Below are positions 2,123 to 64,000 of a stretch of 64,000 bases of DNA, one piece after another (the first letter of the stretch is position 1; every line of letters starts with the position of its first letter). Both the position numbers and the translations under genes were made by a program. The notes under the pieces are model-generated. The model was given only the letters and a program-made list of their open reading frames with translations. It had not been told where the DNA came from and did no database searches. The DNA comes from an uncultured Eubacteriales bacterium (GTDB lineage Bacteria > Bacillota > Clostridia > Lachnospirales > CAMVHY01). Where the stretch lies: the NCBI GenBank assembly GCA_948543815.1, contig CAOVHW010000001.1, positions 138,413 to 202,412 on the forward strand, written 5' to 3'.

Positions 2123-4159
2123 ATGGCCAAGGGAAATATTAATTTAGCAAATCGTTTGAATGATTTTAAGGATCGTATACCAAATTTTGAAAAATTTAAC
2201 GAGATTTTTAATGAATTAGATGTGGACAGAAAAACTGATATAATTAATATTTTAGAAAATTTACCTAATAGGAGATATGTAGGGAAAATTACGGATGAGA
2301 TAATGCAATATTGTAGAACAGCAGATGAAACTGAAGATGGTTTCTTTACCGTAGACATAAAACTGGATATAGTTATTGAGAGAGAAATTTTATTACAGAA
2401 GTTAAATTCAAAAGGTATTGCAGAAATAGACTGCAACCAATTGAGGCAATATATAAATTATTTGGAGAATAAAGAGGCATTTAAAGTTATTAACAATTTA
2501 AGTAAAAGTTTAGATAATAGCCAATTAAGTAATAAAGTTTTTTCTACAATCGAGAAATTAAAAAAAAATATTGAAATGGTACATATAAATCGTTTAAATA
2601 ATTTTAAGGATCGCATACCAAATTTTGAAATATTCCGAAAGTTTTTTAGTAAATTAGATGAACCAACTCAAGAAAAAATAATTTATATTTTAGAGAATTT
2701 GCATAATAATAAATCTGCAAGTGAAATTACGGATAAGATAATGCAATATTGTAGAATAGTAAATGAATGTGACGATGATTTCTTTACTTTTTTAAACATA
2801 AAACACTATATAGATTTTGATATAGAGATTTTGTTAAATAAACTAATTTCAAGAGGTATTGAAAAAACGGACTGTTACCAATTGAGGTACTATATGAAGT
2901 GTTTGAATAATAAAGAGGCAAATAGAGTTATTGAAAATTTAAACAAAAATTTAAATAATAAACGATTAAGCAATATAGTTTCTTCTACAATCAAGGAACT
3001 TGAAAAAAATATTATAAAGCGTTTAAATAATTTTAAGAATCGCATACCAAATTTTGAAGAATTTAAAGAGATTTTTAATGGATTAGATGTGAAAAGAAAA
3101 AGTAATATAATTAATATTTTAGAATGTTTGTGTGGTAGGGGATATGTAAGTAAAATTGCGGATGAGATAATGCAAAATTGTAGAAAAGCAGATAAAGATG
3201 GTTCCTTTACTATAGACCCAAATCTGGATATAGTTATTGATAGAGAGGTTTTGTTAAATGAAATATTTTTTAAAGGTGTTATTAATAAAAAATACTCCAA
3301 CCTATTGATAAAATATATGAATGCTTTGGTTTTGACTAATAAAGGGCTAAATAAAGCTATTAAAAAATTAAACGAAGATTTATATAATGACAAATTACGC
3401 TATACAATTTTTTCTATAATCCAAAAAAGCCAAAAATCAGTTATAATAACTCTTTTAAACAATTTTAAGGATGACATACCAGATTTTGAAAAAGTTAAAG
3501 ATATTGTTGATAAATTAAATATATCAACCAAAGAAAGATTAATTGAAATTTTAATTCAGCCACTTAAACAAAGATATTTCAAAAATTTTGTAACTGAATT
3601 AATAAAGTTGTATGAAGAAAGCAACATGGAAAGATTTTATATAGTTATTGACAGAGAAATTTTGTTACAACGATTACGTGATCGAGAAGACTTTACACAC
3701 GATGAGCGTAAAAGGTTTAGTCAAGTTATAAATACACTAAGTAATGAGTCTGCAAAATTATTTATTGAAGATATAAAAAGTATTTTAAGCAGTAGAACAC
3801 AAAAAGAAGTAATTCTTGAAAGAATTAATGATGGGGAAAATAAGATAGAAGAAGAAAAAGATAATTTTTGTAGAGAATTAAAGAAGAAAGCTGATATTAC
3901 CGTAAGCGATACTAAACAAATAAGGAAAGTTATAGATGGTTTACCTTATGATGAATGGGACAAATCTTGTAATGCTTTGAGAGAGAATGCATTAAATGGT
4001 AAGTCAAGAAGAGAAATCCCTTCGCTTATTAATGTAAAAGAGACAAACAATTCAAATAATCCACTTCAGAAAGTTGACCAAGCAAATAAGTCAAAAATGC
4101 CGCATAAAAAGAAAATTGCTCAAATGATTTCAAAACGCTCAAAGGAAGATATACTATAA
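2123..4159 (+). CDS. Modular-repeat orphan protein, paralog 2 (four ~144-aa modules plus a C-terminal tail)
   Basis: Long ORF. The module start LN(D/N)FK(D/N)RIPNFE recurs at nt 2153, 2591, 3020 and 3452. The SD supports ATG 2123 (track start 2102 lies in the leader). No signal peptide or TM segment. Confidence 0.8.
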   Translation: MAKGNINLANRLNDFKDRIPNFEKFNEIFNELDVDRKTDIINILENLPNRRYVGKITDEIMQYCRTADETEDGFFTVDIKLDIVIEREILLQKLNSKGIAEIDCNQLRQYINYLENKEAFKVINNLSKSLDNSQLSNKVFSTIEKLKKNIEMVHINRLNNFKDRIPNFEIFRKFFSKLDEPTQEKIIYILENLHNNKSASEITDKIMQYCRIVNECDDDFFTFLNIKHYIDFDIEILLNKLISRGIEKTDCYQLRYYMKCLNNKEANRVIENLNKNLNNKRLSNIVSSTIKELEKNIIKRLNNFKNRIPNFEEFKEIFNGLDVKRKSNIINILECLCGRGYVSKIADEIMQNCRKADKDGSFTIDPNLDIVIDREVLLNEIFFKGVINKKYSNLLIKYMNALVLTNKGLNKAIKKLNEDLYNDKLRYTIFSIIQKSQKSVIITLLNNFKDDIPDFEKVKDIVDKLNISTKERLIEILIQPLKQRYFKNFVTELIKLYEESNMERFYIVIDREILLQRLRDREDFTHDERKRFSQVINTLSNESAKLFIEDIKSILSSRTQKEVILERINDGENKIEEEKDNFCRELKKKADITVSDTKQIRKVIDGLPYDEWDKSCNALRENALNGKSRREIPSLINVKETNNSNNPLQKVDQANKSKMPHKKKIAQMISKRSKEDIL

Positions 4160-4171
4160 AAATAATTTTCA

Positions 4172-4199
4172 AAATCAAATCTTTGAATTTGATTTTTTT
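4172..4199 (+). terminator. Intrinsic terminator after paralog 2
   Basis: AAATCAAAT-CTTTGA-ATTTGATTT hairpin followed by a T-run. Nearly the same hairpin follows paralog 3. Confidence 0.65.
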
Positions 4200-4231
4200 G
4201 TAAAAATTAAGGAGATAAAAAAGTAACAAAC

Positions 4232-4260
4232 TTGATATAATATTAAAATGATGTTACAAT
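4232..4260 (+). promoter_or_regulatory. Sigma-A type promoter, leader cassette copy 3
   Basis: TTGATA 4232-4237, 17-nt spacer, TACAAT 4255-4260, then GAGGAGATGATTATTATGG. Confidence 0.55.
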
Positions 4261-4290: not shown

Positions 4291-4884
4291 ATGGAAACTG
4301 GACAACATTTAATTGTAGATTGGCAAAACAAATTGAAATATATTTTGACTTCAGCGGGTTATGAAAAATATTGGCCAGAAATAAATGATATTTTACAAAG
4401 TTTAGATTCACAAAGGAAAGAAAAATTAATGAATTTTTTATCGGTTAGTGAAGGTGTTATAGGAGGATTTAAATCAGCAGATTTATCAACTGTGTTAAAT
4501 GTTTTTAAAAAATTAAATTTTAATTATAGAATAGGATTAATTGATGTTTTAAACAATGGGGATAATGGTAAACAATTAAATCTTTACGAACAAGGAGACT
4601 TAATTAATGTTTTAGATAGATTAGATGAAACTGACAAATGCAATTTGATTAATGTTTTATATCAATCAAGTTTAGATAAAAAAAAGGAATACATTAGTCA
4701 ATTAAATAGGATTGGAAATGAACAGTCAAAATTAAAAGAATCAATTAATTCTATTAATGTGGGTTTTTATAAAACACAACAGGAATCTAAGGAGATGCAA
4801 CGACCAATTCAACTGGTAAATCAAAATAATTCTCAAAGTAAAAATGAAAATTATAAAAAGCAGCAGCCGCAAACTAATAGGTAA
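4291..4884 (+). CDS. Orphan protein, paralog 3 (short, divergent member of the array)
   Basis: Shares the leader cassette and LD...K..LIN(V/I)L-type segments (ILQSLDSQRKEKLMNFL, VLDRLDETDKCNLINVL). N/Q-rich tail. Confidence 0.7.
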   Translation: METGQHLIVDWQNKLKYILTSAGYEKYWPEINDILQSLDSQRKEKLMNFLSVSEGVIGGFKSADLSTVLNVFKKLNFNYRIGLIDVLNNGDNGKQLNLYEQGDLINVLDRLDETDKCNLINVLYQSSLDKKKEYISQLNRIGNEQSKLKESINSINVGFYKTQQESKEMQRPIQLVNQNNSQSKNENYKKQQPQTNR

Positions 4885-4911
4885 TCTCTACAGCAAACTT
4901 AAAAAAATTTG

Positions 4912-4939
4912 AAATCAAATCTTCGGATTTGATTTTTTT
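4912..4939 (+). terminator. Intrinsic terminator after paralog 3
   Basis: AAATCAAATC-TTCG-GATTTGATTT hairpin plus a T-run. Confidence 0.65.
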
Positions 4940-4998
4940 GTTGTAAAAATGCGGATGATTTTGATAATCTAATAATAAAATTATTTTTTGAGGTTAAG

Positions 4999-5454
4999 AT
5001 GAATAACAAAGGTTTTACTTTGATTGAATTAATAATTTCGTTGGCAATTAGTGTAATAATTTTGAGCTTAGGTTCAATTTCTTTTAATGTTGTTGAGCGC
5101 CATCGAATTGTTCAATCCGCAAATATTTTACGTTCAAATTTAAGATATTGTCAGAAAAATGCTGTCGATGAAAAAAGGAAATATGTTTTAACTTTTGATT
5201 CAAATAAAAATTTATATTATGTGCGGCGTGCGGATGATAGTGGTTTACTGCGCAAAGTTTCGCAAGTTAATTTGCCATTGGGGATAAATATTTTTACGAA
5301 TGCCAAAGAAAATTCAGTAGCTTATACTTTGCGTGGAACAACTGGAAGTGCGTGTACAATAAATTTGCGCGGTCAAAAATATTTTTTGAAAATGACAGTT
5401 AATGTTGGCTGCGGCCGCGTAAAAATTAATCCTGTTCAAAAACTTTATTCATAA
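4999..5454 (+). CDS. Prepilin-type N-terminal cleavage/methylation domain protein (minor pseudopilin-like)
   Basis: N-terminus MNNKGFTLIELIISLAISVIILSL matches the G/FTLIE class III signal followed by a hydrophobic helix. Confidence 0.65.
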   Translation: MNNKGFTLIELIISLAISVIILSLGSISFNVVERHRIVQSANILRSNLRYCQKNAVDEKRKYVLTFDSNKNLYYVRRADDSGLLRKVSQVNLPLGINIFTNAKENSVAYTLRGTTGSACTINLRGQKYFLKMTVNVGCGRVKINPVQKLYS

Positions 5455-5526
5455 AAATAATTTTGCGCATTAATTTTATTTTTGTTAAACTATTATGCGT
5501 GAAATTATTTTTTTTTGGAGGCAATT

Positions 5527-8091
5527 ATGAGTTTCTTGACAAAATTATTTGGCAATTATAGTGAAAAAGAAATTAAACGAATTCTTCCACTAGCTAAAAA
5601 AATTGAAGGTCTTGATGAACAAATGCAAGAATTATCTGACGATGAATTAAAAAATAAAACGCTTGAATTTAAAAATATGCTTGCAAATGGTAAAACTCTT
5701 GACGATATTTTACCAGAAGCTTTTGCAGTTGTACGTGAGGCAGCATTTCGTACGCTTGAAATGAAACATTTTCATGTGCAAATTATTGGCGGAATCGTTT
5801 TGCATCAAGGTCGTATCGCAGAAATGAAAACCGGTGAAGGTAAAACTTTGGTTGCAACTTTACCAGCATATCTTAATGCGCTTGAAGGCAAAGGCGTTCA
5901 TATCGTTACTGTAAATGATTATTTAGCGCAACGTGATGCAAAATGGATGGGACAAATTTTTGAATTTCTCGGCTTAACGGTTGGTGTTGTTTTAAATTCA
6001 ATGTCGGCTGATGAACGTAAACAGGCTTATAATTGTGATATAACCTATGCGACAAATAATGAGTTGGGTTTCGATTATTTGCGCGATAATATGGTTATTT
6101 ATAAAGAACAAATGGTTCAGCGTGGTTTGAATTATGCGATAATAGATGAAGTCGATTCTGTTTTGATTGATGAGGCACGCACGCCGCTTATTATTTCCGG
6201 AAGCGGCACGAAATCTACTCAGCTTTATAATATTGCCGATTCATTTGTAAAAACTTTGACACGTGGTCGAATTTTAAATGAGGACGAGGCGTTAAATCCG
6301 ATTACAAAAACAGAATTGATTGAAGAAGGCGATTTTGTCGTTGACGAAAAGGCTAAGAGCGTTACGTTGACTCAGGAAGGAATTAAAAAGGCAGAAAAAT
6401 TTTTTCGTATCGAAAATTTATCTGACCCCGCAAATCTTGAACTGCAGCATCATATTAATAATGCGCTTAAGGCAAATTATAATATGGCGGCCGATAAAGA
6501 TTATGTTGTCAAGGAAAATGAAATAATAATTGTTGACGAATTTACCGGACGACTTATGCCCGGCCGCAGATATTCTGATGGTTTACATCAAGCTATTGAG
6601 GCAAAAGAAGGTGTAAAAGTAAATCGCGAAAGTAAAACTTTAGCGACAATTACTTTCCAAAACTTTTTCAATAAATATGCGAAAAAAGCCGGAATGACAG
6701 GAACTGCTGTTACTGAAGAGAATGAGTTTCGACAAATTTATGGCTTGGATGTTGTCGAGATTAGTCCAAATAAACCTGTCATTCGTATTGATTATCCTGA
6801 TTCAGTTTATCGAACTGAAGCTGCAAAGTTTCGAGCTGTTGTGAAAGAAATTAAACAATCGTATGAAAAAGGTCAACCGGTTTTGGTTGGCACGATTACT
6901 ATTGACAAGTCGGAAAAACTTAGCCAAATGTTAAAGCGCGAGGGAATTCCTCATCAAGTTTTGAATGCAAAATATCATGAGAAAGAAGCTGAAATTATTT
7001 CCAAAGCTGGAAATAAAAATGCGGTTACGATTGCGACAAATATGGCGGGGCGCGGTACTGACATAAAACTCGGTGATGGCGTAAAAGAATTAGGTGGATT
7101 AAAAATAATTGGAACGGAACGCCATGAATCGCGACGCATTGATAATCAATTACGTGGGCGTTCGGGCCGTCAGGGTGATCCCGGTGAGTCACGATTTTTT
7201 ATTTCACTTGAAGATGATTTGATGCGATTGTTTGGCTCAGAAAAAATGATGAAGATTGTTGACGTTTTGGGTTTGCCTGAAGACGAAGCAATTGAACATA
7301 AAATTTTATCTAAAGCGATTGAAAATGCGCAGAAAAAAGTTGAGGGCAATAACTTTGCAATACGTAAACATCTTTTGGAATACGATAAAGTTATGAATGA
7401 GCAGCGCGAAATTATTTATGCTGAGCGATTGAAAGTTTTACAAGGTGAAAATATCAAAGATAACATAATGAAAATGTTAAAAGAAGTTATCACGCGCAAT
7501 GTTAATTTGTATTCAGGTGAATCCGATTTCTCCGAAGATTGGGATATCAATAATCTCAATGAATTTTTGCTGCCGATTTTCCATGAGGTCGCCGTAGTTT
7601 TGAGTGATGATGACAAAGAAGTTTTAAAAAAGTCGGATTTAATTGACCAATTATTTGTGCGTGCACAGAAAATTTATGATGAAAAAGAAAATGAGTTTGG
7701 TGCTGAGCATATGCGCGAAATTGAGCGGATTATAACTTTGCGCATGGTTGACCAGCATTGGACTGATCATATTGACAATATGGACCAAATGCGGCAGGGA
7801 ATTTCGCTGCGCGCTTACGCACAACGTGATCCGTTAGTTGAATATAAATTTTTGAGCTACGATATGTTCGAGGAAATGAGCAATAATATTCAACTTGATA
7901 CAATTCGTGGATTATTTAATGTTCGACTTGAAACGCCGCCGGAACGCGAACAAGTTGTAAAAGAAGTTTCAACAAATGTTGAATCAACCGAAAAAAAAAC
8001 GATTCAACGTAAAGAATCTAAAATCGGTAGAAATGACCCATGCCCATGCGGCAGTGGCAAAAAATATAAGCAATGTTGTGGGAAAAAATAA
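5527..8091 (+). CDS. secA: Preprotein translocase ATPase SecA
   Basis: Motifs [32 protein letters not shown] and [14 protein letters not shown]-terminal zinc motif [19 protein letters not shown] 5517-5521 precedes ATG 5527. Confidence 0.97.
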
Positions 8092-8103: not shown

Positions 8104-9205
8104 TTGTTTGAACTCGATGAAATCTACACACAAATGAATGAGTATAAAAAAAAATTAGATGATATGGGGCGATCTCTTTGACATCGATACGCTTAAATTA
8201 AAATTGCAAAATCTTGAAACTGAATTATGTCAGCCGGAAATTTGGAGTGATATAAAAAAGTCGCAAGTGATTACAAAACAAAAAAAACAGCTCGAAATTA
8301 AAGTTTTAAATTTTGAATCACTTTATAATCAATGTCAAGATATTTTTGTATTTATTGAATTGGCCGAACAGGAAAATGATTTGAGTCTTTTGTCCGAAAT
8401 TAAATCCGCTAAAAATAAATTTGTCAGTGAATTTGAATCTTTTCGTATCTCAAATTTGTTGAGCGGTGAATATGATTTCAATAATGCAATTGTTTCTTTA
8501 CATTCCGGTGCGGGTGGAACTGAAGCATGTGATTGGGTTGATATGCTCTTTCGAATGTATGGCAAGTGGTGCGACAAAAATAATTTTTCATTTAAAGTTA
8601 TGGATTATTTGCCGGGCGAGGAAGCTGGTATTAAATCAGTGACGTTTGAGGTTAAAGGCGACAATGCGTATGGATATTTGAAAAGTGAGCGTGGTGTGCA
8701 TCGACTTATCCGAATTTCACCATTTGATGCGTCGGGGCGTCGGCATACATCATTTGCTTCATGCGAAGTTATGCCGGAAATAAATGATGAAATTGAAATA
8801 AAAATTGCGGAAGATGAGATACGTGTTGATACTTACCGTTCGAGTGGTGCGGGTGGTCAGCATGTAAATACAACTGATTCCGCAATTCGTATTACACATT
8901 TGCCAACCGGAATTGTTGTTCAGTGTCAAAATGAGCGCTCGCAAATACAAAATCGTGAATTCGCAATGAATATGCTTAGGGCAAAATTATTGTCAATGAA
9001 AATTGATGAACAGCGCGCAAAATTGGAAGGCATACGTGGCCAGCAAAAAGAAATTGCGTGGGGAAGTCAAATTCGTACTTACGTATTTCATCCGTATAAT
9101 TTAGTCAAAGACCATCGTACAAATGTTGAAACGGGTAACGTTCGCGCGGTTATGGACGGCGATATCAATTTGTTTATAAATGCTTATTTAACTTTATTTG
9201 CTTAA
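8104..9205 (+). CDS. prfB: Peptide chain release factor 2, requires a programmed +1 frameshift at 8176-8182
   Basis: Frame 0 (TTG 8104, RBS AAGAGG 8090-8095) reads MFELDEIYTQMNEYKKKLDDMGRSL then TGA. The +1 frame continues DIDTLKLKLQ... with the SPF motif (RISPFDASGRRHTSFA) and the GGQ motif (SGAGGQHVNTTDSA). Confidence 0.93.
8164..8182 (+). other. RF2 autoregulatory +1 frameshift site (CTT TGA C with an upstream SD-like GGGG)
   Basis: atg ggg cga tct CTT TGA C. Classic slippery Leu codon plus a UGA stop in poor context. Confidence 0.9.
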
Positions 9206-44341: not shown

Positions 44342-44415
<74 letters not shown>

Positions 44416-44429
44416 AAAATAAAAAAAAG

Positions 44430-44502
44430 TGGGTGTAATAGGGCTCGAACCTATGACCCTCTGCTTGTAAGGCAGATGCTCTCCCAGCTGAGCTATACAC
44501 CC
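44430..44502 (-). tRNA. tRNA-Val (anticodon TAC)
   Basis: GGGTGTA/TA/GCTC-AGCTGGGA-GAGC/A/TCTGC-CTTACAA-GCAGA/GGGTC/ATAGG-TTCGAGC-CCTAT/TACACCC/A. No encoded CCA. Confidence 0.9.
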
Positions 44503-44505
44503 TAA

Positions 44506-44582
44506 TGGCGACTCAAAAGGGACTTGAACCCTCGACCTCTGGCGTGACAGGCCAGCGCTCTAACCAACTGAGCTATTGAGCC
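44506..44582 (-). tRNA. tRNA-Asp (anticodon GTC), CCA encoded
   Basis: GGCTCAA/TA/GCTC-AGTTGGTTA-GAGC/G/CTGGC-CTGTCAC-GCCAG/AGGTC/GAGGG-TTCAAGT-CCCTT/TTGAGTC/G/CCA. Confidence 0.9.
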
Positions 44583-45760: not shown

Positions 45761-46022
45761 AGCATATTAATTAGAAAAGTCAATTTGATATTAAAAATGT
45801 GATTTTGTAAGAAAATATTAGGAACAGTTATGAGTTACAGAGCGGACAAATAATGTATTGATAAAAATCAAATGTTTTTAATAAAAAAGATTTTATATAA
45901 AAATCACTTTTTTATTGATCAAAATTTTCAAATAAAGTTGTGTAAATAAATACTAAGTATTATAATTAAATTATAATTATTTTTAAGCAAATAAAAAGTC
46001 TAAAAAGCAAAGATGATTTTAT

Positions 46023-47990
46023 ATGGAAGATCAAATGATAAATCTGGAAGAACAAATGTCCAATTGGCAAAATGTTATTGATGAAATGAAGCGTTCGGAA
46101 AATTTCAACGAAAGTATAGTATTACAAGACAAAGATGAATCTAAATTTACATTTAAAAAAATTGGTGATGATCTTAAATCTAATGCTGGATTTGATCAAG
46201 TAATTCATCCAACACAAATAAGCATAAAAGAGCAAGAAGCAAATATGAATGCATTACTAGACAAAGTTCTTGAATTTAAAAAACAATATTTTGAAGATTT
46301 TGTAAGTCGACATAAAAGTAAGTATCCTAATGCTAATGTTGAACTAACGATGCAAGATATGCTCTTGCAAAAATATACAAGAGCAGTTATGAGTGATGCA
46401 CATGGCGATTTATTTTCATTATTGTCTGCATTATGTACAATTGGATTTGTAAATGTATCAAAAAATCATTTTTTATATTTTAATTTAACAACAAAGCAAT
46501 TTGTAAAAAGAGAAGAATGCTACCGAATATTTACAGAAAAAATGGAAAAAGAATTTGGAACTCCCTTTTTTGTTGATATTTTTTTGGAACATGCAGAATC
46601 TTTTTTTTGTATTATTAATGATAAAAATGAAAAAATGACGAAAAAAATTGAATTATTGAATAAATACATAAGAGAAAAAAATATATCAAATTTGAGTATT
46701 AGTGCAAATAATGATGTGATAAATTTTAATTTTGCAAAAATTACCATACAAGTCAATAAAATTGTTAAAAAATTCGTTTTATTTGGTTCTGATGAGAAAC
46801 AAAAATTTATTATAAATATAAGTAAAAAAAAATATTGTATAAATGTAATTTTTGATGTTAATAAAAATGAATATATATATAAGCTAAAGCAATGTTTTAC
46901 AGAATGGAAAAACAATTTTCTGAAAGAATTTTTTAGTAAAAATATTAATTCAATTTTTTATGTTATACCAATGTTATCTATAAATCCAATTGCTCTTGAG
47001 GCTCCGGAGCTTTTTGGAAAATTTATTGATTTGGGAGATTGTATTGACAGGGGGTCTGAAACTGTAGCCTGTCTTGTAACTTATGCACTTTTATCAAAGG
47101 CGATGCCTGATTCAATAAAATGTATGCTTGGTAATCATGAAGCTATGCAATCAATGCTTAGATGTGACGATGGTAATTGTTTTTTAGATTTTATTAATTT
47201 TTGTATTGAAAATCAATTGCTAAAACCGGGATATATTGAATCCAATAAAATTGGGGATAAAACAATTTGGCGCTCATATTCACATACAATACTTACAAAA
47301 AAGCATTTGCCAAAACTATTTACTCTTTTAGTTATATCGTCATTTATAGCATCAATGAATGAAGAAGTTGTAGAAGTAGAAAAAATATCTGAGAATACAC
47401 AAATAATAATTAAATCATTTAAAAATTGCTCAAAGAGAGACTTTGATCCTTTAAAACGGCATTTAAGAAACAAATGGCCCGAAATATTTAATAATTTAAG
47501 CGAAGAATTGCGAAATAAATTAAAGAATTTTTTTAAAGATGAAGATTTAACAAAATTGCTTTTGAAATTTTTCATAGTTAATAATAAGGGCAAAACAATT
47601 TTTTATCAGGAATGGCAAAGTTTTTATTCAAAATTAATGGAGTTTGGGTTTACGAATAATGAATTTTTTGAATTGAAATTTGCTATGTGTAGTATTTTTT
47701 ATAATGAATATTATAAAACTGCCAATATTATTTGGAAAAATGTTTTTTTGGGTTTAGCCGAAGAAGATGCAAGATTTATGGGTTGGCTTTTTGGTGAAAG
47801 ATATGTTCCAGAAAATAAATGTGAGCTTTTTGATGATGTAATACAATATCTTGGTCATGATCACGCAAATTTCATATTAATGCCAGAAAACTTAGGCGGT
47901 CTTGTAATATATTTAGATACTTGTAGGAGCGCGGGGTATAGGACGGATAAAGAAGGATTGAATAATGAATCAAGATTAAATTTACTTTAA
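46023..47990 (+). CDS. Orphan 655-aa protein with split PPP/calcineurin-like metallophosphatase motifs
   Basis: SDAHGD (aa 124-129, nt 46392-46409), GDCIDRG (aa 338-344, nt 47034-), GNHE (aa 370-373, nt 47130-), GHDH (aa 611-614, nt 47853-), LDT near the C-terminus. The order is canonical but the motif I-II spacing is ~214 aa instead of ~25-30. Confidence 0.75.
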   Translation: MEDQMINLEEQMSNWQNVIDEMKRSENFNESIVLQDKDESKFTFKKIGDDLKSNAGFDQVIHPTQISIKEQEANMNALLDKVLEFKKQYFEDFVSRHKSKYPNANVELTMQDMLLQKYTRAVMSDAHGDLFSLLSALCTIGFVNVSKNHFLYFNLTTKQFVKREECYRIFTEKMEKEFGTPFFVDIFLEHAESFFCIINDKNEKMTKKIELLNKYIREKNISNLSISANNDVINFNFAKITIQVNKIVKKFVLFGSDEKQKFIINISKKKYCINVIFDVNKNEYIYKLKQCFTEWKNNFLKEFFSKNINSIFYVIPMLSINPIALEAPELFGKFIDLGDCIDRGSETVACLVTYALLSKAMPDSIKCMLGNHEAMQSMLRCDDGNCFLDFINFCIENQLLKPGYIESNKIGDKTIWRSYSHTILTKKHLPKLFTLLVISSFIASMNEEVVEVEKISENTQIIIKSFKNCSKRDFDPLKRHLRNKWPEIFNNLSEELRNKLKNFFKDEDLTKLLLKFFIVNNKGKTIFYQEWQSFYSKLMEFGFTNNEFFELKFAMCSIFYNEYYKTANIIWKNVFLGLAEEDARFMGWLFGERYVPENKCELFDDVIQYLGHDHANFILMPENLGGLVIYLDTCRSAGYRTDKEGLNNESRLNLL

Positions 47991-48096
47991 TTTAAAAACA
48001 AATTATGTAGCTTTAGGGGGAAATTCTATAATCCAAAAAACAAAGAAAAACGAAGTAGGTGAAAAAAGATTTTCTTCAACAAAATTAATTCAAAAT

Positions 48097-48714
48097 ATGT
48101 TATTTGAAAGTAGTGAAATTAGGAACTTAAAATCTATTGTTAGCACCAAAATTATAGAAACAAATCAATTAAAAAAAGGACTTACCGAACAAAATCGAGA
48201 AAATGAGACAATTCAAACACAATTGAAAGAAGCAAATGAAAATATTAAAAATAAAGAAGAAGAGCTTAAAGCCAAACAAGAAGAATTTAACAATCAAAAT
48301 GAAGAAATAAATCAATTAAAATCAAAATTTAAAGAACAAAAAGAAATAATGAAAAAATTTCAAGAAAAAAATTTAGCTAAAAAAATTACTAAGGGAACAA
48401 TTGTTTTAAGTATTTTTTCCTTCGCTATCGCAATAAGTTTAGGAATACTTGCTCCAATAGGCGTAGGTGTAATAGCTTCTTTATCTATGTTGAGTACGAT
48501 ATTTTTAGTTGGAACACCAACTCTTGTAGGAACGATATTAGCTATTTGTAGTTGTATTTTCTATAAAAAATCAAAACAAAAAGATAATTACAATCAACTA
48601 AATTCATCAAATATCAAATCAAACGATAATCAAAAAAATTTTACAACAGTACCACAAAAAAATTCCGTTCCATTACAACAAAGAGATAAAGTTAACTATC
48701 AAACAAAATTTTAA
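48097..48714 (+). CDS. Coiled-coil protein with a C-terminal hydrophobic (2-3 TM) block and an N/Q-rich tail
   Basis: aa ~20-95 are K/E/Q/N-rich with heptad character (KEANENIKNKEEELKAKQEEFNNQNEEINQLKSKFKEQKEIMKKFQEK). Then ITKGTIVLSIFSFAIAISLGILAPIGVGVIASLSMLSTIFLVGTPTLVGTILAICSCIFY. Confidence 0.65.
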   Translation: MLFESSEIRNLKSIVSTKIIETNQLKKGLTEQNRENETIQTQLKEANENIKNKEEELKAKQEEFNNQNEEINQLKSKFKEQKEIMKKFQEKNLAKKITKGTIVLSIFSFAIAISLGILAPIGVGVIASLSMLSTIFLVGTPTLVGTILAICSCIFYKKSKQKDNYNQLNSSNIKSNDNQKNFTTVPQKNSVPLQQRDKVNYQTKF

Positions 48715-48728
48715 ATAACCAAATAAAA

Positions 48729-48758
48729 AAGATTGAGCACGAAACTCAATCTTTTTTT
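48729..48758 (+). terminator. Intrinsic terminator
   Basis: AGATTGAG-CACGAAA-CTCAATCT plus a T-run. Confidence 0.8.
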
Positions 48759-49108
48759 ATGGAAAAATTTATTTAACAAAACATAAAGCAAATGTAAAAA
48801 TAAAATATAAACCAGCTGAAATATAATTTTTTTTTTTAATTAAAGTTGATAATATCAATATTTGCAAAAAAATATATTTTGAATAGTGTTTCGTAAGTTT
48901 AATTATTTTGATGAATATGTCATTAAAGATGTGGTTTATTAACATTAAGTTGTTTTATTTAAGAATTTTACTTTATTCAATAATTGGATTTTAATATTAA
49001 ATTATATATCTATTATTATAATGATAAATCATAAAAAATAATTCAAATAGTTTTATTATATAAATATATAATATATTAATGTTTATTATTTGTTTAATAT
49101 TTTTTTGT

Positions 49109-49548
49109 CTAGATTTTTGGATTACATTCAATTAATTCTGCTGTTACTTTATAAGCAAAAGGTGAAAGAAGATTAAAATTAGTTTCACTTATATTAATCC
49201 AACAAGCACCAAGTGAATCTAACCCATCACCGTCTAATTTTAAATTTGTAAAATTATTTGATATAACTTCATAAATAATACCGACATGATGTAAATTTTC
49301 AATTTCTCCATTATTATCCCATTCAATATTATATGTATAAACATTGTGTAATTTAGCTTTTTCTGTATTAAGACCTGTTTCTTCTTTTATCTCACGTTTT
49401 AAACATTGTATTATATCTTCACCATGTTCAAGTCCTCCACCTGGCAAATCAAATTTTCCAATATATGCACCTCTGCTTTTTTTATCAGTAATATTTTATT
49501 GTTTTTAATTATTATTCCATATACGCTTAAATGTCTATGATTTTTCAT
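49109..49548 (-). pseudogene. Nudix hydrolase gene disrupted by a frameshift in a homopolymer (T7 on the + strand, 49477-49483)
   Basis: SD AGGTGA plus ATG 49548 opens MKNHRHLSVYGIIIKNNKILLIKK. One extra A would join it in frame to SRGAYIGKFDLPGGGLEHGEDIIQCLKREIKEETGL (Nudix box GX5EX7REUXEEXGU). Confidence 0.75.
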
Positions 49549-49775
49549 TTTATATCACCTGTTTTTTATTAATGTTCAAATTGATATTCATCTAATATTT
49601 CTTGTTGAGGTATTTTTTACGAATTTGTAGTAATAACTTGTATGTTAAAAATTTTGAAGTTATTCTCAAGGTAAAATGTGAGATTTGTACGCATTAAAGT
49701 TTTCAAAATCTTAACCAACGTATTTTAAATTGTTGCTTTTATATCAATAAATAAAAATATAGGAAGATTGTTTGT

Positions 49776-50595
49776 ATGAAAAAAATAATTAAAAATGATG
49801 ACTTTAATACAAATTCAAACAATAACCCAACTAAATATACACAACCAAGTTTACCTCCGTTTGTGATTAGTCGAGCAAAATCAATTGGAACTATCGGTGA
49901 AGTATGGCTTGATAACCTTGACAGTATGATATTTGAGATGGAAAAGATGTGGAATATTTCTGTTGGGAAAGTTTTATCAGGTAGTACGCACGCTTTTGTT
50001 GATTATGCAGATGGACAGAATGGTGAAAAGTATGTTCTGAAATTAGATATGCCTGAAAATCTCGGCAATAAATTTTATAATATAGAATGTTCTGTTTTTG
50101 AACAACTACAGATTGTCTGCTTTGTACTACAAAAGGTTTGGGAAATTTCTATTACAAATGTTGATTTGCTAAGTGAAAAAGAAGGTATATCGCAGTTTAG
50201 AGAGCATATTAAAAAAACATGGAAAAAATTAAAACGGCCATGTTTGCGTGAAGTAAGTGAAAGAGCATTTTTTATTTAAAATCAAGAGAAGAAGCTATCA
50301 ATCCAGCAGAATTTGGATTTATTTATGGTGATGTCTATAGTGGAAATACAATCAAAGAACAATCAGTTGAAAGGTTTAAAGTGATTGATCCAGATAATAT
50401 TATTTATGAAAAGCCTATGGTTTAGGTGTTTTTATGAGAGAATGGATTAAACCATTAAAGAAGGAAAAGAAACGCTGCAGGTACTTATACCAACTGACAG
50501 GTATTTCTGAAAAAGTAATTTTGGAATGGGAATATTTACAAACTGTTTCTAATGCTTTTATATTATTGCAAATTAAGCAAGAGGCATTTGGCTGA
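49776..50595 (+). pseudogene. APH(6)/streptomycin-6-kinase-family aminoglycoside phosphotransferase pseudogene
   Basis: The N-terminal part is intact (AKSIGTIGEVWLDNLDSMIFEMEKMWNISVGKVLSGSTHAFVDYADGQNGEKYVLKLDMPE). Stop at 50277. The homology continues in two other frames (FIYGDVYSGN...FKVIDPDNIIYE; YGLGVFMREWIKPL...ILEWEYLQTVSNAF). The catalytic HGDLH motif is degraded to YGDVY. Confidence 0.65.
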
Positions 50596-61839: not shown

Positions 61840-62061
61840 ATGAATTCTAAACCTTTAGACTGGACCGCGCTTACTATTTTAATTATTGGCGCGATAAATT
61901 GGGGTTTGATCGGTTTCTTCCAATTCGATTTAATTGCCGCTATCTTTGGTGGCGTTACTTCATGGGTTAGCAGAATCCTTTACGCTATTGTCGGCATCGC
62001 CGGTATCTATTCCCTTTGTTTATTTAATAAAGTTGAAGAGGAAGAACTCGCTCATAGCTAA
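61840..62061 (+). CDS. DUF378 family small membrane protein
   Basis: LDWTALTILIIGAINWGLIGFFQFDLIAAIFGG is the DUF378 signature. AAGGAGG SD. Confidence 0.85.
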   Translation: MNSKPLDWTALTILIIGAINWGLIGFFQFDLIAAIFGGVTSWVSRILYAIVGIAGIYSLCLFNKVEEEELAHS

Positions 62062-62069
62062 ATATAAAT

Positions 62070-62104
62070 AAAAAAAACTTTGCACATTCTGCAAAGTTTT
62101 TTTT
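62070..62104. terminator. Bidirectional intrinsic terminator
   Basis: ACTTTGCA-CATTC-TGCAAAGT flanked by an A-run and a T-run, between convergent genes. Confidence 0.75.
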
Positions 62105-64000
62105 ATGTTTCAATTTGTTTAGGATTTTGCGGAATCATTTGTGGGATTTTAGATAATAAATTTGAAGACGATGTGGACCTTGGCATCGGTAAACTTTCTG
62201 ATAAAGTTTTAGTATTATTTAAACTTGTATTTCTTCTTTTTGATTTAGTTGGAACTAAATTAGATGAAGATGAATTTATATTTTTTGTAACGGGAAAATT
62301 TAATTCTGGAAAAAGTAAATCAGAAAATGATTGTCTTATTTTTTTATTTTTTGTTCCAATCGGAATATTTTGTTCAAATTTTGAAATTGTTTCTGGATTA
62401 GATAAATAACATTGTAAATCATCATGTGAATTTGTTAGTTTATAAAAATTTTCTTCACGTCTTGAATATTCTAATATTAATTCTTGTGTTGAAATTTCTA
62501 GTTCTGCAAAACTTATTTCATAATTATCAAAAAACGCCAAAGAAATTTTAGTTAAATTTGCTATTTCAATAATTTGTTGTTCGTACTTTTTTATAGAGTA
62601 TAAAAATATTAAGGCTTGTAAGTTTACAGGTAAATCGTTAAATTTTAAATTTGATATTAAATTTTTTTCTATAGATAAAACATTTGATTTAATACGATCA
62701 TTTAGAACACTATGGCAAGATTTATCAGGTTCTAATATATGTAAAAAAAACTCGGGCTCTTTAATTGCTATTAAAATTAAAATTTTTGTTGTGGGATTTA
62801 AAGATGAAAATTTTATTTCTTCATGATTTTCTGTTTGTATAATTGTTTCAGCATTTATAAAAAAATTTTCTTGTGAATTATGTAAAGAACGTTTTAATAA
62901 AATTATAAAAGAAAAAGCTTGCATTTCATAGGAAAGTTGTTCATAGTTATTTTTATTTTCATTTTTATGAAATACAAAAAATTTTTCTTCGGAATTTAAT
63001 GAAGCTAATTGGAGATTGTCAAAATTTTCGTTCATTAATATATCTGGAATTAAAATCTCTTTATTTTTAAGATTTAATGATTTAATACTACGAATTGCAT
63101 CAGCAGGATATTTTTTACTAAAAAAGTCTATTAATTCATTAATACGATTAAATTTATCTAAAATAATAATCATTTCATTTTTATTATCATTGTTTGTATT
63201 TTCGAGAGAATTATAAAAATATTCTTTTAAATCTTGTGGAAATTCTTCTATATATTCAGCAATAAAAGTAAAAGCTTTATATTCATTAAAAATTAAATCA
63301 AATAAAGAAATTTTTTCTTTATAAGATAAATAATTTTCAGCAAAAAATGATTTAAATATTTGAAGAGTAATATTTACAAATGATTTTCTTTTGTCATTAA
63401 AACAATGATAGAAAATTTTTTTTTGATTTGGAGTAAGATGAGAAAAAATTATTTCACGTAATTTATTTATTTGTGGTTTATTATCCCAGTATTTTAGAAA
63501 AAATATTAAGAAAAAATCATTTTTTGAATTTTGAATTATATTTTTAGTTTCTTCGCTAATTAATATTTCAAAGATAATTGATTTATCTTCATTAGAAATT
63601 TTTCCCCAAGATTTAAAGAAACTTTGCCAAATTCTATGTGCTTCAACAGAATCATCATTAAAATATGGATGATATTTTGCTCCAACTTCAAAAATTATTC
63701 TAAATAAATTTTTTTTTATTGCAATCGTTGGTAAACAAAAAAAATAATCTTGAAAAGAAAATTTTTCTACAAGGTTAAAATAAAAATTTTGTACTTCTTT
63801 TGATTCATTTATTTTTGATAATGCATAAAAAAAATTTTTTCGAAAATCACCGATATTGATTATTTTTTTTCTACCATTACTAAAAAAATTTTGTTCAAAA
63901 TCAACATTTCCATCAAACATTTTAAATAATTGTTGAGAAGAAAATTCGTTTAAAAGATAAATGATTTGATTTTCCTCAAATAATATTAAATATGCAAGTT
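62103..64000 (-). CDS. Large orphan protein (more than 630 aa; 5' end beyond the window)
   Basis: The frame stays open from the track ATG 63920 to the window edge (LAYLILFEENQIIYLLNEFSSQQLFKMFDG...). N/K/F/E/I-rich. S/T/N/P-rich C-terminal tail. No TM segment, and no motif I recognise. Confidence 0.7.
   Translation of the reverse strand, partial: LAYLILFEENQIIYLLNEFSSQQLFKMFDGNVDFEQNFFSNGRKKIINIGDFRKNFFYALSKINESKEVQNFYFNLVEKFSFQDYFFCLPTIAIKKNLFRIIFEVGAKYHPYFNDDSVEAHRIWQSFFKSWGKISNEDKSIIFEILISEETKNIIQNSKNDFFLIFFLKYWDNKPQINKLREIIFSHLTPNQKKIFYHCFNDKRKSFVNITLQIFKSFFAENYLSYKEKISLFDLIFNEYKAFTFIAEYIEEFPQDLKEYFYNSLENTNNDNKNEMIIILDKFNRINELIDFFSKKYPADAIRSIKSLNLKNKEILIPDILMNENFDNLQLASLNSEEKFFVFHKNENKNNYEQLSYEMQAFSFIILLKRSLHNSQENFFINAETIIQTENHEEIKFSSLNPTTKILILIAIKEPEFFLHILEPDKSCHSVLNDRIKSNVLSIEKNLISNLKFNDLPVNLQALIFLYSIKKYEQQIIEIANLTKISLAFFDNYEISFAELEISTQELILEYSRREENFYKLTNSHDDLQCYLSNPETISKFEQNIPIGTKNKKIRQSFSDLLFPELNFPVTKNINSSSSNLVPTKSKRRNTSLNNTKTLSESLPMPRSTSSSNLLSKIPQMIPQNPKQIET

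Follow-up and report, generated by a model that had tools for sequence, protein, structure and literature searches.

The P2 gene

The window analysed here is a 64,000-nucleotide stretch of contig CAOVHW010000001.1 (positions 138,413 to 202,412 of the forward strand), which belongs to a metagenome-assembled genome (MAG, GCA_948543815.1) of an uncultured Eubacteriales bacterium. Near its left end the gene order is ytvI, P1, P2, P3, a ComGD-like pilin gene, secA, and prfB. Our subject is P2, the second of three adjacent genes that had been described as paralogs 1 to 3 (P1 to P3), whose coding sequence contains an in-frame tandem array of domain-sized modules. The features of P2 are listed below, with amino acid ranges and independent E-values (iE) taken from a module hidden Markov model (HMM) built from an alignment of eight modules (A2).

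2064 to 2092, + strand: sigma-70-type promoter of P2, TTGACA, 17 nt, TACAAT, with TG before the −10 element; 11/12 consensus matches, joint top of the scan
2108 to 2113, + strand: ribosome-binding site (RBS) AAGGAG, 9 nt upstream of ATG 2123, read from the sequence
2123 to 4159, + strand: P2 coding sequence, 678 aa plus stop; stop-free frame, identical bar one single-nucleotide polymorphism (SNP) in independent assemblies
2153 to 2590, + strand: module M1, 146 aa; HMM aa 11–152, iE 2e-58; AlphaFold 2 (AF2) model
2591 to 3019, + strand: module M2, 143 aa; HMM aa 157–298, iE 1e-53
2633 to 2713, + strand: probable gene-conversion tract within M2, shared with P1 777–857; identity counts, binomial 6e-6
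3020 to 3451, + strand: module M3, 144 aa; HMM aa 300–441, iE 9e-55
3452 to 3850, + strand: module M4, an older, diverged copy; HMM aa 445–576, iE 2e-49; 32–35% identity to M1–M3
3857 to 4039, + strand: half module, the second half of the domain, a "DITVSD..." region common to P1; HMM iE 7e-6 (P2) and 5e-10 (P1)
4040 to 4156, + strand: C-terminal basic tail, motif S-[LI]-I ... P-[LI]-[KQ]-x-V; last 40 aa with a net charge of +6
4171 to 4200, + strand: terminator-like A+T-rich hairpin followed by a U run, 3' of P2; 10-bp stem plus U7

The start codon of P2 is likely ATG 2123 and not 2102, the position from which its open reading frame (ORF) had been listed; on independent contigs the product is called as 678 aa long, starting MAKGN. 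The protein is laid out as a 10-residue leader, M1, M2, M3, M4, the half module, and the tail. There are no stops in the P2 frame compared with 81 and 110 in the other two plus-strand frames, and the chance of 678 stop-free codons at this base composition (25% G+C) is approximately 1e-32. Two hydrophobic minus-strand ORFs (2086–2436, 116 aa; 2890–3393, 167 aa) overlap P2, in a minus frame with only 13 stops across the gene; we set these aside as genes, since they are probably shadow ORFs of the K/N/E/I-rich coding strand.

The N-terminus of P2, MAKGNINLANRLN, is hydrophilic, and no signal peptide, lipobox, LPXTG motif, membrane segment, or anchor was detected in the protein by hydropathy and sequence inspection. 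Averaged over 19 residues, Kyte-Doolittle hydropathy peaks at 1.05 in P2 and does not exceed 1.5 in any cassette protein. We infer from these properties that the P2 product would be cytoplasmic and soluble.

Internal repeats of P2

The original prediction described P2 as four modules of roughly 430 bp, each opening with a recognizable string. In its degenerate 39-nt form this string has exact plus-strand matches at 2153, 2591, and 3020 and none in 100 dinucleotide-preserving shuffles, and the diverged fourth module start, LLNNFKDDIPDFE, is present at 3452. The resulting periods of 438, 429, and 432 bp were reproduced, each being a multiple of 3 and in frame with the P2 ORF, and the internal motifs that had been listed (LD..K..II.ILE.L, ITDEIMQ.CR, DIVIEREILL, and NKEA..VI.NL) are visible in the alignment of M1–M3. 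A statistical repeat finder also recovers the array: Tandem Repeats Finder reports one array at 2134–3517 with period 429, 3.2 copies, 72% matches, and a score of 1184. A separate repeat search gave five in-register copies with spacings of 1418, 438, 429, and 432, the first copy lying inside P1.

Module proteins were compared by Smith-Waterman scores against 300 shuffles. Protein identity is 56% between M1 and M2 (z 46), 55% between M1 and M3 (z 46), and 42% between M2 and M3 (z 25), with M4 at 32–35% identity to these three (z 11–13) and the P1 module at 36–44% identity to all four P2 modules (z 7–16). Indels between modules are without exception multiples of 3. At the DNA level M1–M3 are 73–77% identical, with the longest exact runs of about 20 nt at the module start, where the M2 and M3 start strings agree at 38/39 positions with exact runs of 18 nt and 20 nt.

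The module HMM finds four full modules in P2 (aa 11–152, 157–298, 300–441, and 445–576, iE 1e-49 to 1e-58) and a fifth, half module at aa 579–639 (iE 7e-6) that covers model positions 73–133. The predicted four modules over 2153–3880 thus hold in number, but the M4 match ends at aa 576 (position 3850) and the half module that follows brings the count to 4.5. P1 was predicted to carry a single module and does have one full copy, together with a marginal second match (iE 0.008) and a C-terminal half module (iE 5e-10). P3, said to hold only fragments of the pattern, indeed has just three weak HMM matches to a hairpin of approximately 25 residues, "F..LD......II.IL..L". The P2 repeats are real and far beyond chance, and they have the characteristics of tandem domain repeats produced by intragenic duplication: the units are adjacent, in frame, similar to one another, and domain-sized.

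Predicted structure of the module

An AF2 model of M1 based on the eight-module alignment has a mean predicted local distance difference test score (pLDDT) of 92 and a predicted template modelling score (pTM) of 0.84, with all five models at or above a pLDDT of 88.9. The predicted fold is compact, with seven helices of at least 9 residues, preceded by a one-turn N-terminal helix, and a two-residue beta bridge. The invariant columns of the module alignment (I, L, I, E, L, L, N) are mostly core-type residues, and the net charge of the modules ranges from −5 to +8. As modelled, the repeat is a folding unit the size of a domain, in which the core is conserved and the surface varies.

Foldseek searches with the M1 model gave no convincing relative, with a best E of 0.6 and template modelling (TM) scores of at most 0.58 (a designed fibre protein) in the PDB, and a best E of 0.3 in BFVD. 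Matches to a rhodopsin and to tape-measure proteins were discarded as noise (TM 0.2–0.35). The sequence-profile search of the PDB returned only designed helical bundles. The module of approximately 143 residues has neither a sequence relative nor a structural one in the searched libraries but is confidently predicted to fold, and is accordingly put forward as a candidate for a new domain family in uncultured Clostridia of the gut type.

Distribution of the family

A profile search of the module against 1.84 billion representative proteins matched four proteins only. P0001 is P2 itself and P0004 is the window's truncated P1; P0003 has 327 aa and one module, and P0002, from two short Logan contigs, has 321 aa and two modules. 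Module number therefore differs among family members (one in P0003, two in P0002, and four in P2), as had been proposed. None of the four proteins carries a name in any source, their clusters hold 1–4 members each, and matching cassette sequences are held in NCBI, ENA, and JGI sources. This exhaustive profile search is the distribution result on which we rely. In a word-indexed homology search P2 and P3 each returned only themselves, and the eight-module alignment returned nothing, not even the query's own protein; the word index is therefore unreliable for low-complexity, A+T-rich sequences of this kind.

The window is 100% identical to a second NCBI MAG, GCA_948506575.1 (contig CAOPUI010000001.1), and no P2 relative was found in GTDB species-representative genomes. 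SecA from this locus is at most 73% identical to those of GTDB r232 species representatives, based on the 80 closest loci, the nearest being from uncultured Eubacteriales/Clostridia MAGs, with Eubacterium sp. CAG:274 at 70%. In these 80 SecA loci, tblastn found no homologue of P1, P2, or P3, and none has ytvI or comGD upstream of secA. The DNA pattern of the promoter block had no matches in JGI metagenome contigs or IMG/VR. The best Pfam matches reach at most 20 bits against cut-offs of 25–32, so that no family is significant, and matches in NCBIfam, PHROG, and PADLOC all have E > 0.003. A prophage or defence origin was considered and rejected, given the housekeeping genes on the flanks and the lack of a significant match in PHROGs or PADLOC. 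From these searches, P2 appears to belong to a very small family of orphan genes that does not extend beyond one narrow lineage of uncultured Clostridia of the gut type. No publication was found under the run and assembly accessions.

The cassette array downstream of ytvI

P1, P2, and P3 lie in tandem between ytvI and the ComGD-like gene, each preceded by its own promoter and leader. The neighbouring features are:

30 to 569: ytvI; TIGR02872, E 8e-45, 153.7 bits against a 198-bit cutoff
654 to 1859, + strand: P1, one full module (687–1175) plus half module; promoter 595–623; TAA at 813–815
1940 to 2040, + strand: remnant of the ytvI 3' end (...GLKIFGL...ILEDYSKKN*), left junction of the duplicated cassette; repeat comparison
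4291 to 4884, + strand: P3, 197 aa; promoter block 4232–4260, RBS, terminator 4911–4940, and tail motif common with the cassettes
4999 to 5454: ComGD-like minor pilin; NF040982, E 4e-17, 62.8 bits, below the 70-bit cutoff; N_methyl motif
5515 to 8091: secA
8159 to 9205: prfB

Truncation of ytvI at the start of the window accounts for its score below the TIGR02872 cutoff. The segment 532–698, which includes the last ytvI codons (ILEDYSKKN*), is repeated at 2001–2167 with 80% identity, and a promoter/5' block of about 80–110 nt precedes P1, P2, and P3 at 83–91% identity. The remnant of ytvI at 1940–2040 is approximately 100 nt long, and the same remnant precedes cassette genes in two other lineages (contigs L086 and L084). 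The presence of the ytvI 3' end and the repeated block in the copies therefore identifies the duplicated unit as ytvI 3' end, promoter, gene, and terminator. The promoter/leader block remains 80–90% identical even in the distant lineage that carries P0002. No further copy of the family or of the promoter block occurs within the 64-kb window.

The bodies of the cassette genes are far less alike. P1 and P2 align with 27% identity over 382 residues (E 7e-15), and P3 has no significant BLASTP similarity to either. The tail motif S-[LI]-I ... P-[LI]-[KQ]-x-V nevertheless aligns in all seven cassette proteins, non-homologous ones included. The terminator-like hairpin 3' of P3 (−10.3 kcal/mol, z −2.9) is stronger than that of P2, and the element is also found behind both cassette genes of L086.

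On L084, the contig of the two-module P0002 lineage, a partial K-rich cassette gene with a KPLKKV tail and a ytvI-3' remnant precede P0002 (1–330), and a further ytvI-3' remnant follows it (1508–1570). It follows that these lineages split after the array and its duplication junction had formed.

Divergence, recombination, and the sister lineage

In a neighbour-joining tree M1–M3 form a clade, the module of P1 pairs with that of P0003, and M4 has a loose affinity to both modules of P0002. Synonymous divergence (dS) is 0.17–0.30 among M1–M3, 0.64–0.78 between M4 and M1–M3, and 0.66–1.24 between the P1 module and M1–M3, from which we conclude that the cassette duplication and M4 are old and that M1–M3 arose by a later triplication. 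The synonymous difference (pS) between the window lineage and a sister lineage is 0.11–0.18 in flanking genes; as the dS among M1–M3 is about as large, the module amplification is itself old. At these dS values and a DNA identity of 73–77%, homologous recombination between modules should now be rare.

Recombination has left traces within the array. M1 is a mosaic, its first 240 aligned nt being like M3 (80–90%) and the remainder like M2 (76–79%, against 61–72% to M3). The patch of M2 at 2633–2713 is identical to P1 777–857 at 66/81 positions, compared with 53/81 for M1 and 50/81 for M3, and is probably a gene-conversion tract transferred from P1 to M2.

Sequences of the sister lineage come from NCBI assembly GCA_949423105.1 and from over 20 Logan contigs. 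Over 7 kb its downstream flank matches the window at 96.3% identity, and the stretch from ytvI to P1 does so at 92%, with the locus order ytvI, P0003, an unrelated 241-aa gene, comGD, and secA; no P2 is present at this locus. The 241-aa gene (L086 11276–12001) has nothing in common with P3 of the window beyond the promoter/RBS block, terminator, and tail motif, a relationship that reads as whole-cassette replacement or extreme divergence. In its 3' end and terminator, the single gene of the sister lineage is nearer to P2 of the window (82%) than to P1 (approximately 74%). This gene could be a P1–P2 deletion hybrid, though decay of the window's broken P1 would explain the 3' similarity equally well.

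Variation among strains

Besides the window's own MAG (L096), which we do not count among the independent assemblies, six further full-length P2 loci were available from five sequencing runs, two of them (L001 and L097) being the same SRR7227843 contig. P2 is identical to the window in L098 and L100 (SRR34342995 and SRR27143622), and differs by one SNP, changing D35 to N, in L001, L002, L003, and L097 (SRR7227843, SRR7227845, and SRR7227875). Four partial P2 contigs are 100% identical where present: L099 (GCA_948930515.1), L102 (SRR7227841), L103 (GCA_948656495.1), and L104 (SRR25373273). No indel or length variant was found in P2, which measures 2037 nt in all six of the full-length assemblies.

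P1 does vary between these strains. The allele of the window and L096 has a TAA nonsense codon at 813–815; that of L001, L002, L097, L098, and L100 has CAA at 813 and an A9-to-A8 frameshift near 1652 (1650–1658), giving a 353-aa product. This double disruption could reflect independent pseudogenization or homopolymer phase variation. A perfect 9-bp tandem repeat, GATGAATCA, encoding DES DES DES at 735–761 of P1, is present three times in the window compared with twice in L001, L002, and L086. A cluster of 25 SNPs separates the window from L001 and L002 at 855–1075 of P1 (also 585–593), while the sequences are otherwise 100% identical over 9.3 kb, bar the one P2 SNP. Around two-thirds of the variant bases in this cluster match the sister lineage (L086), and the cluster looks like an imported recombination tract. 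Among the sister-lineage orthologues of P1, P0003 (327 aa) has two copies of an 11-residue unit ((A/E)QEII(D/A)KYEKQ; 33 bp) and P0008 (316 aa) has one. Slippage of short units and conversion thus continue in the family.

The original prediction took the difference in module number between neighbours as a sign that unequal recombination is resizing these genes. Past recombination is borne out by the mosaic M1 and the tract shared between P1 and M2; present-day resizing by whole modules is not, as there is no length variant and the modules are approximately 25% diverged. Resizing by 430-bp modules appears on this comparison to be historical and not ongoing. The opposite view would make P2 an active contingency or size-variation locus, in which unequal recombination now makes alleles of different module number, as in size-variable surface proteins. 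Such a locus would fit the module numbers of one, two, and four among family members, the mosaic modules and conversion tract as products of past recombination, the 9-bp and 33-bp repeats and A9/A8 tract that are polymorphic in P1 and its orthologues, and the nearly identical start strings of M2 and M3 with their exact runs. It would not be expected to leave every full-length assembly at 2037 nt, free of indels and differing by one SNP at most, or the partial contigs without any difference, nor does it sit well with the extent of module divergence given above or with a product in which no signal peptide, lipobox, or anchor was found. We regard such a locus as improbable, and retain for P2 a module amplification that belongs to the past.

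Selection

Selection was estimated by the Nei-Gojobori method. The ratio of nonsynonymous to synonymous divergence (dN/dS) between modules is 0.9–2.3 among M1–M3 and 0.5–1.2 for older pairs, and the corresponding ratio of differences (pN/pS) between orthologous P1 alleles is 0.5–0.9, compared with 0.04–0.09 for secA, prfB, comGD, and ytvI in the same genomes. The coding bodies are therefore under weak constraint or diversifying selection, and the cassette coding regions appear roughly ten times less constrained than the neighbouring genes. The combination of a conserved promoter, leader, and tail with almost unconstrained bodies is a hint of selection for diversity.

Ratios of this kind also invite the view that P2 is decaying or functionless DNA, one of a set of recently duplicated genes drifting toward pseudogenes, whose open frame is simply left over. 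Beyond the dN/dS of about 1 between modules, decay would account for the two inactive alleles of P1, one with a nonsense codon and one frameshifted, for a sister lineage that manages without P2, and for the lack of homologues outside the lineage. A drifting gene should not, however, keep 678 stop-free codons at 25% G+C (P ~ 1e-32), or allow modules to diverge by about 25% without gaining a stop. P2 also has an intact promoter, RBS, and terminator element, each conserved between lineages, the hydrophobic-core positions are invariant in a domain predicted to fold, and inter-module indels are all multiples of 3. Decay is thus an unlikely account of P2, and a gene maintained as coding sequence remains our preferred reading.

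Origin and possible role of P2

We consider it probable that P2 is a real, expressed-looking orphan gene built by cassette and domain duplication, the product of which would be a multivalent scaffold or adaptor with a basic tail. In the sequence of events that the DNA shows or closely implies, a promoter-RBS-gene-terminator cassette directly downstream of ytvI was duplicated in tandem, carrying with it approximately 100 nt of the ytvI 3' end. The domain-coding segment within one cassette copy next underwent in-frame duplication, M4 and the half module being old and M1–M3 later, in a triplication specific to P2. Later ectopic recombination made M1 a mosaic and probably brought the P1 patch into M2, and the number of modules has not changed since, at the latest, the sampled strains began to spread. 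The product may be a string of structurally equivalent, surface-diversified binding domains acting as a multivalent scaffold or adaptor, a reading suggested because only hydrophobic-core positions are invariant and the module charge swings from −5 to +8. Module number would then set the reach or valency of P2, and P2 would be held in place by its conserved basic tail, for which nucleic acid, an anionic membrane, and a partner protein are conceivable binding targets.

Several observations weigh against this account. The neighbouring P1 is broken in both of its allele types, and a gene in decay would likewise have a dN/dS near 1; the Nei-Gojobori estimates are in any case crude for a gene with 25% G+C. 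The P2 hairpin (−6.1 kcal/mol, z −0.96) is matched by 28/200 shuffles and taken alone is not distinguishable from them. With the tail HMM, 6/300, 10/300, and 0/300 shuffles reach the observed score for the three non-module cassettes, so that the motif is only modestly significant for 2/3 proteins. The AF2 alignment comprises only eight intra-family sequences, idealized helical sequences can be over-confidently predicted, and the full-length single-sequence AF2 model of P2, although all-helical, is unreliable (pLDDT 47). As for function, none of the homologues found has a known role.

It is unlikely that P2 is a divergent member of the MgtE_N/FliG-type helical-hairpin group, for instance a flagellar, motor, or Mg-transport accessory protein. 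This idea derives from weak matches to PF03448 in P3 (E 0.004), M1 (E 0.013, residues 14–35), and the P1 half module (E 0.14), all on the hairpin "h..LD......hh..L". The scores are 18.1 bits for P3 (profile 22–87), 16.4 for M1 (profile 29–50), and 13.1 for P1, against a gathering score of 25.9; they cover 22–66 residues of a 102-position profile, and only 1/8 modules match. No MgtE or FliG chain is in the Foldseek top 50 for the M1 model in the PDB, where the best E is 0.6, and the PDB profile search gives designed helical bundles only.

The notion that a short-read assembler expanded or collapsed the repeats is hardly credible: the source is a MAG and tandem repeats are a known assembly hazard, but the copies differ at about one-quarter of bases, so that reads place uniquely, and Logan assemblies from five runs agree on full-length P2, the divergence and the agreement together making collapse or expansion implausible.

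A broader conjecture about the array, to which we give little credence, would extend the account of P2 to its neighbours. The ytvI-proximal genes could be interchangeable "payload" genes, in which the strong promoter/leader, first codons, and tail are kept by every cassette of three lineages while the bodies are hyper-diverged, replaced (the 197-aa P3 by the 241-aa gene), or amplified (1, 2, or 4.5 modules), with the tail as a targeting or export signal. Should this be so, the signal might lead to a spore layer, to a compartment, or into a non-classical route of secretion, the bodies might be under diversifying selection from phages, competitors, or host, and the module would be a new fold.

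Comparison with known systems

Proteins of variable size built from repeats include the Mycoplasma Vlp/Vsp families and the Rib/alpha-C and SasG-type surface proteins. The P2 locus resembles these in being a tandem paralog array with a conserved promoter/5' block, in having in-frame repeats whose number differs among members of the P2 family, and in the homopolymer polymorphism of P1. It differs in that P2 has no detected signal peptide, lipobox, LPXTG motif, or membrane segment, in that its units are whole helical domains of about 143 aa that are approximately 25% diverged in DNA and not near-identical, and in the lack of a ~430-bp copy-number polymorphism among the available P2 assemblies.

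The P2 modules are predicted to be all-helical, like the hairpin repeats of MgtE_N (PF03448) and FliG, and the "h..LD......hh..L" pattern recurs in P3, M1, and the P1 half module; unlike in those families, the module scores are sub-threshold, the matches span 22–66 residues, and there is no Foldseek match. The best profile and fold matches are to designed helical repeat or bundle proteins (PDB 8eov, 5cwh, 7jrq, and 9cte), with which P2 modules share regular amphipathic helices and a compact bundle, but with E 0.03–1.3 and TM of at most 0.58 this is the generic likeness of idealized helices and carries no evolutionary or functional meaning.

A further comparison is with strain-variable tandem arrays of small cytoplasmic helical proteins, among them the orphan immunity-gene arrays of polymorphic toxin systems. 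The cassette proteins are similarly arranged in tandem, fast-diverging, lineage-specific, soluble, and helical, and the content of the array differs between strains with flanks that are ~96% identical. No toxin gene or known immunity family turned up in the approximately 10 kb examined on each side, Pfam and PADLOC being negative, and each cassette gene has its own strong promoter and a common basic tail, an atypical trait for immunity arrays.

The behaviour seen here, intragenic domain amplification within a tandem paralog array, is a known one, and what is new is the small domain family. P2 offers a clean natural example of orphan-gene growth by cassette duplication, in-frame domain amplification, and gene conversion, in which the relative timing of growth can be read against a sister lineage that does not have P2. 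Its importance is modest, with no bearing on a long-standing open question.

Other features of the window

The ComGD-like gene is solitary, lying directly upstream of secA with no other com or pil genes nearby, and evolves under strong constraint (pN/pS 0.05). Three adjacent tRNA genes lie at 44342–44582 on the minus strand (Rfam RF00005, 65–72 bits). Very low G+C (21–26%), comparable to that of the cassette array, is also found at 46001–50000 and 62001–64000, and these stretches contain ORFs of 655 aa (46023–47990) and 605 aa (62103–63920, minus strand).

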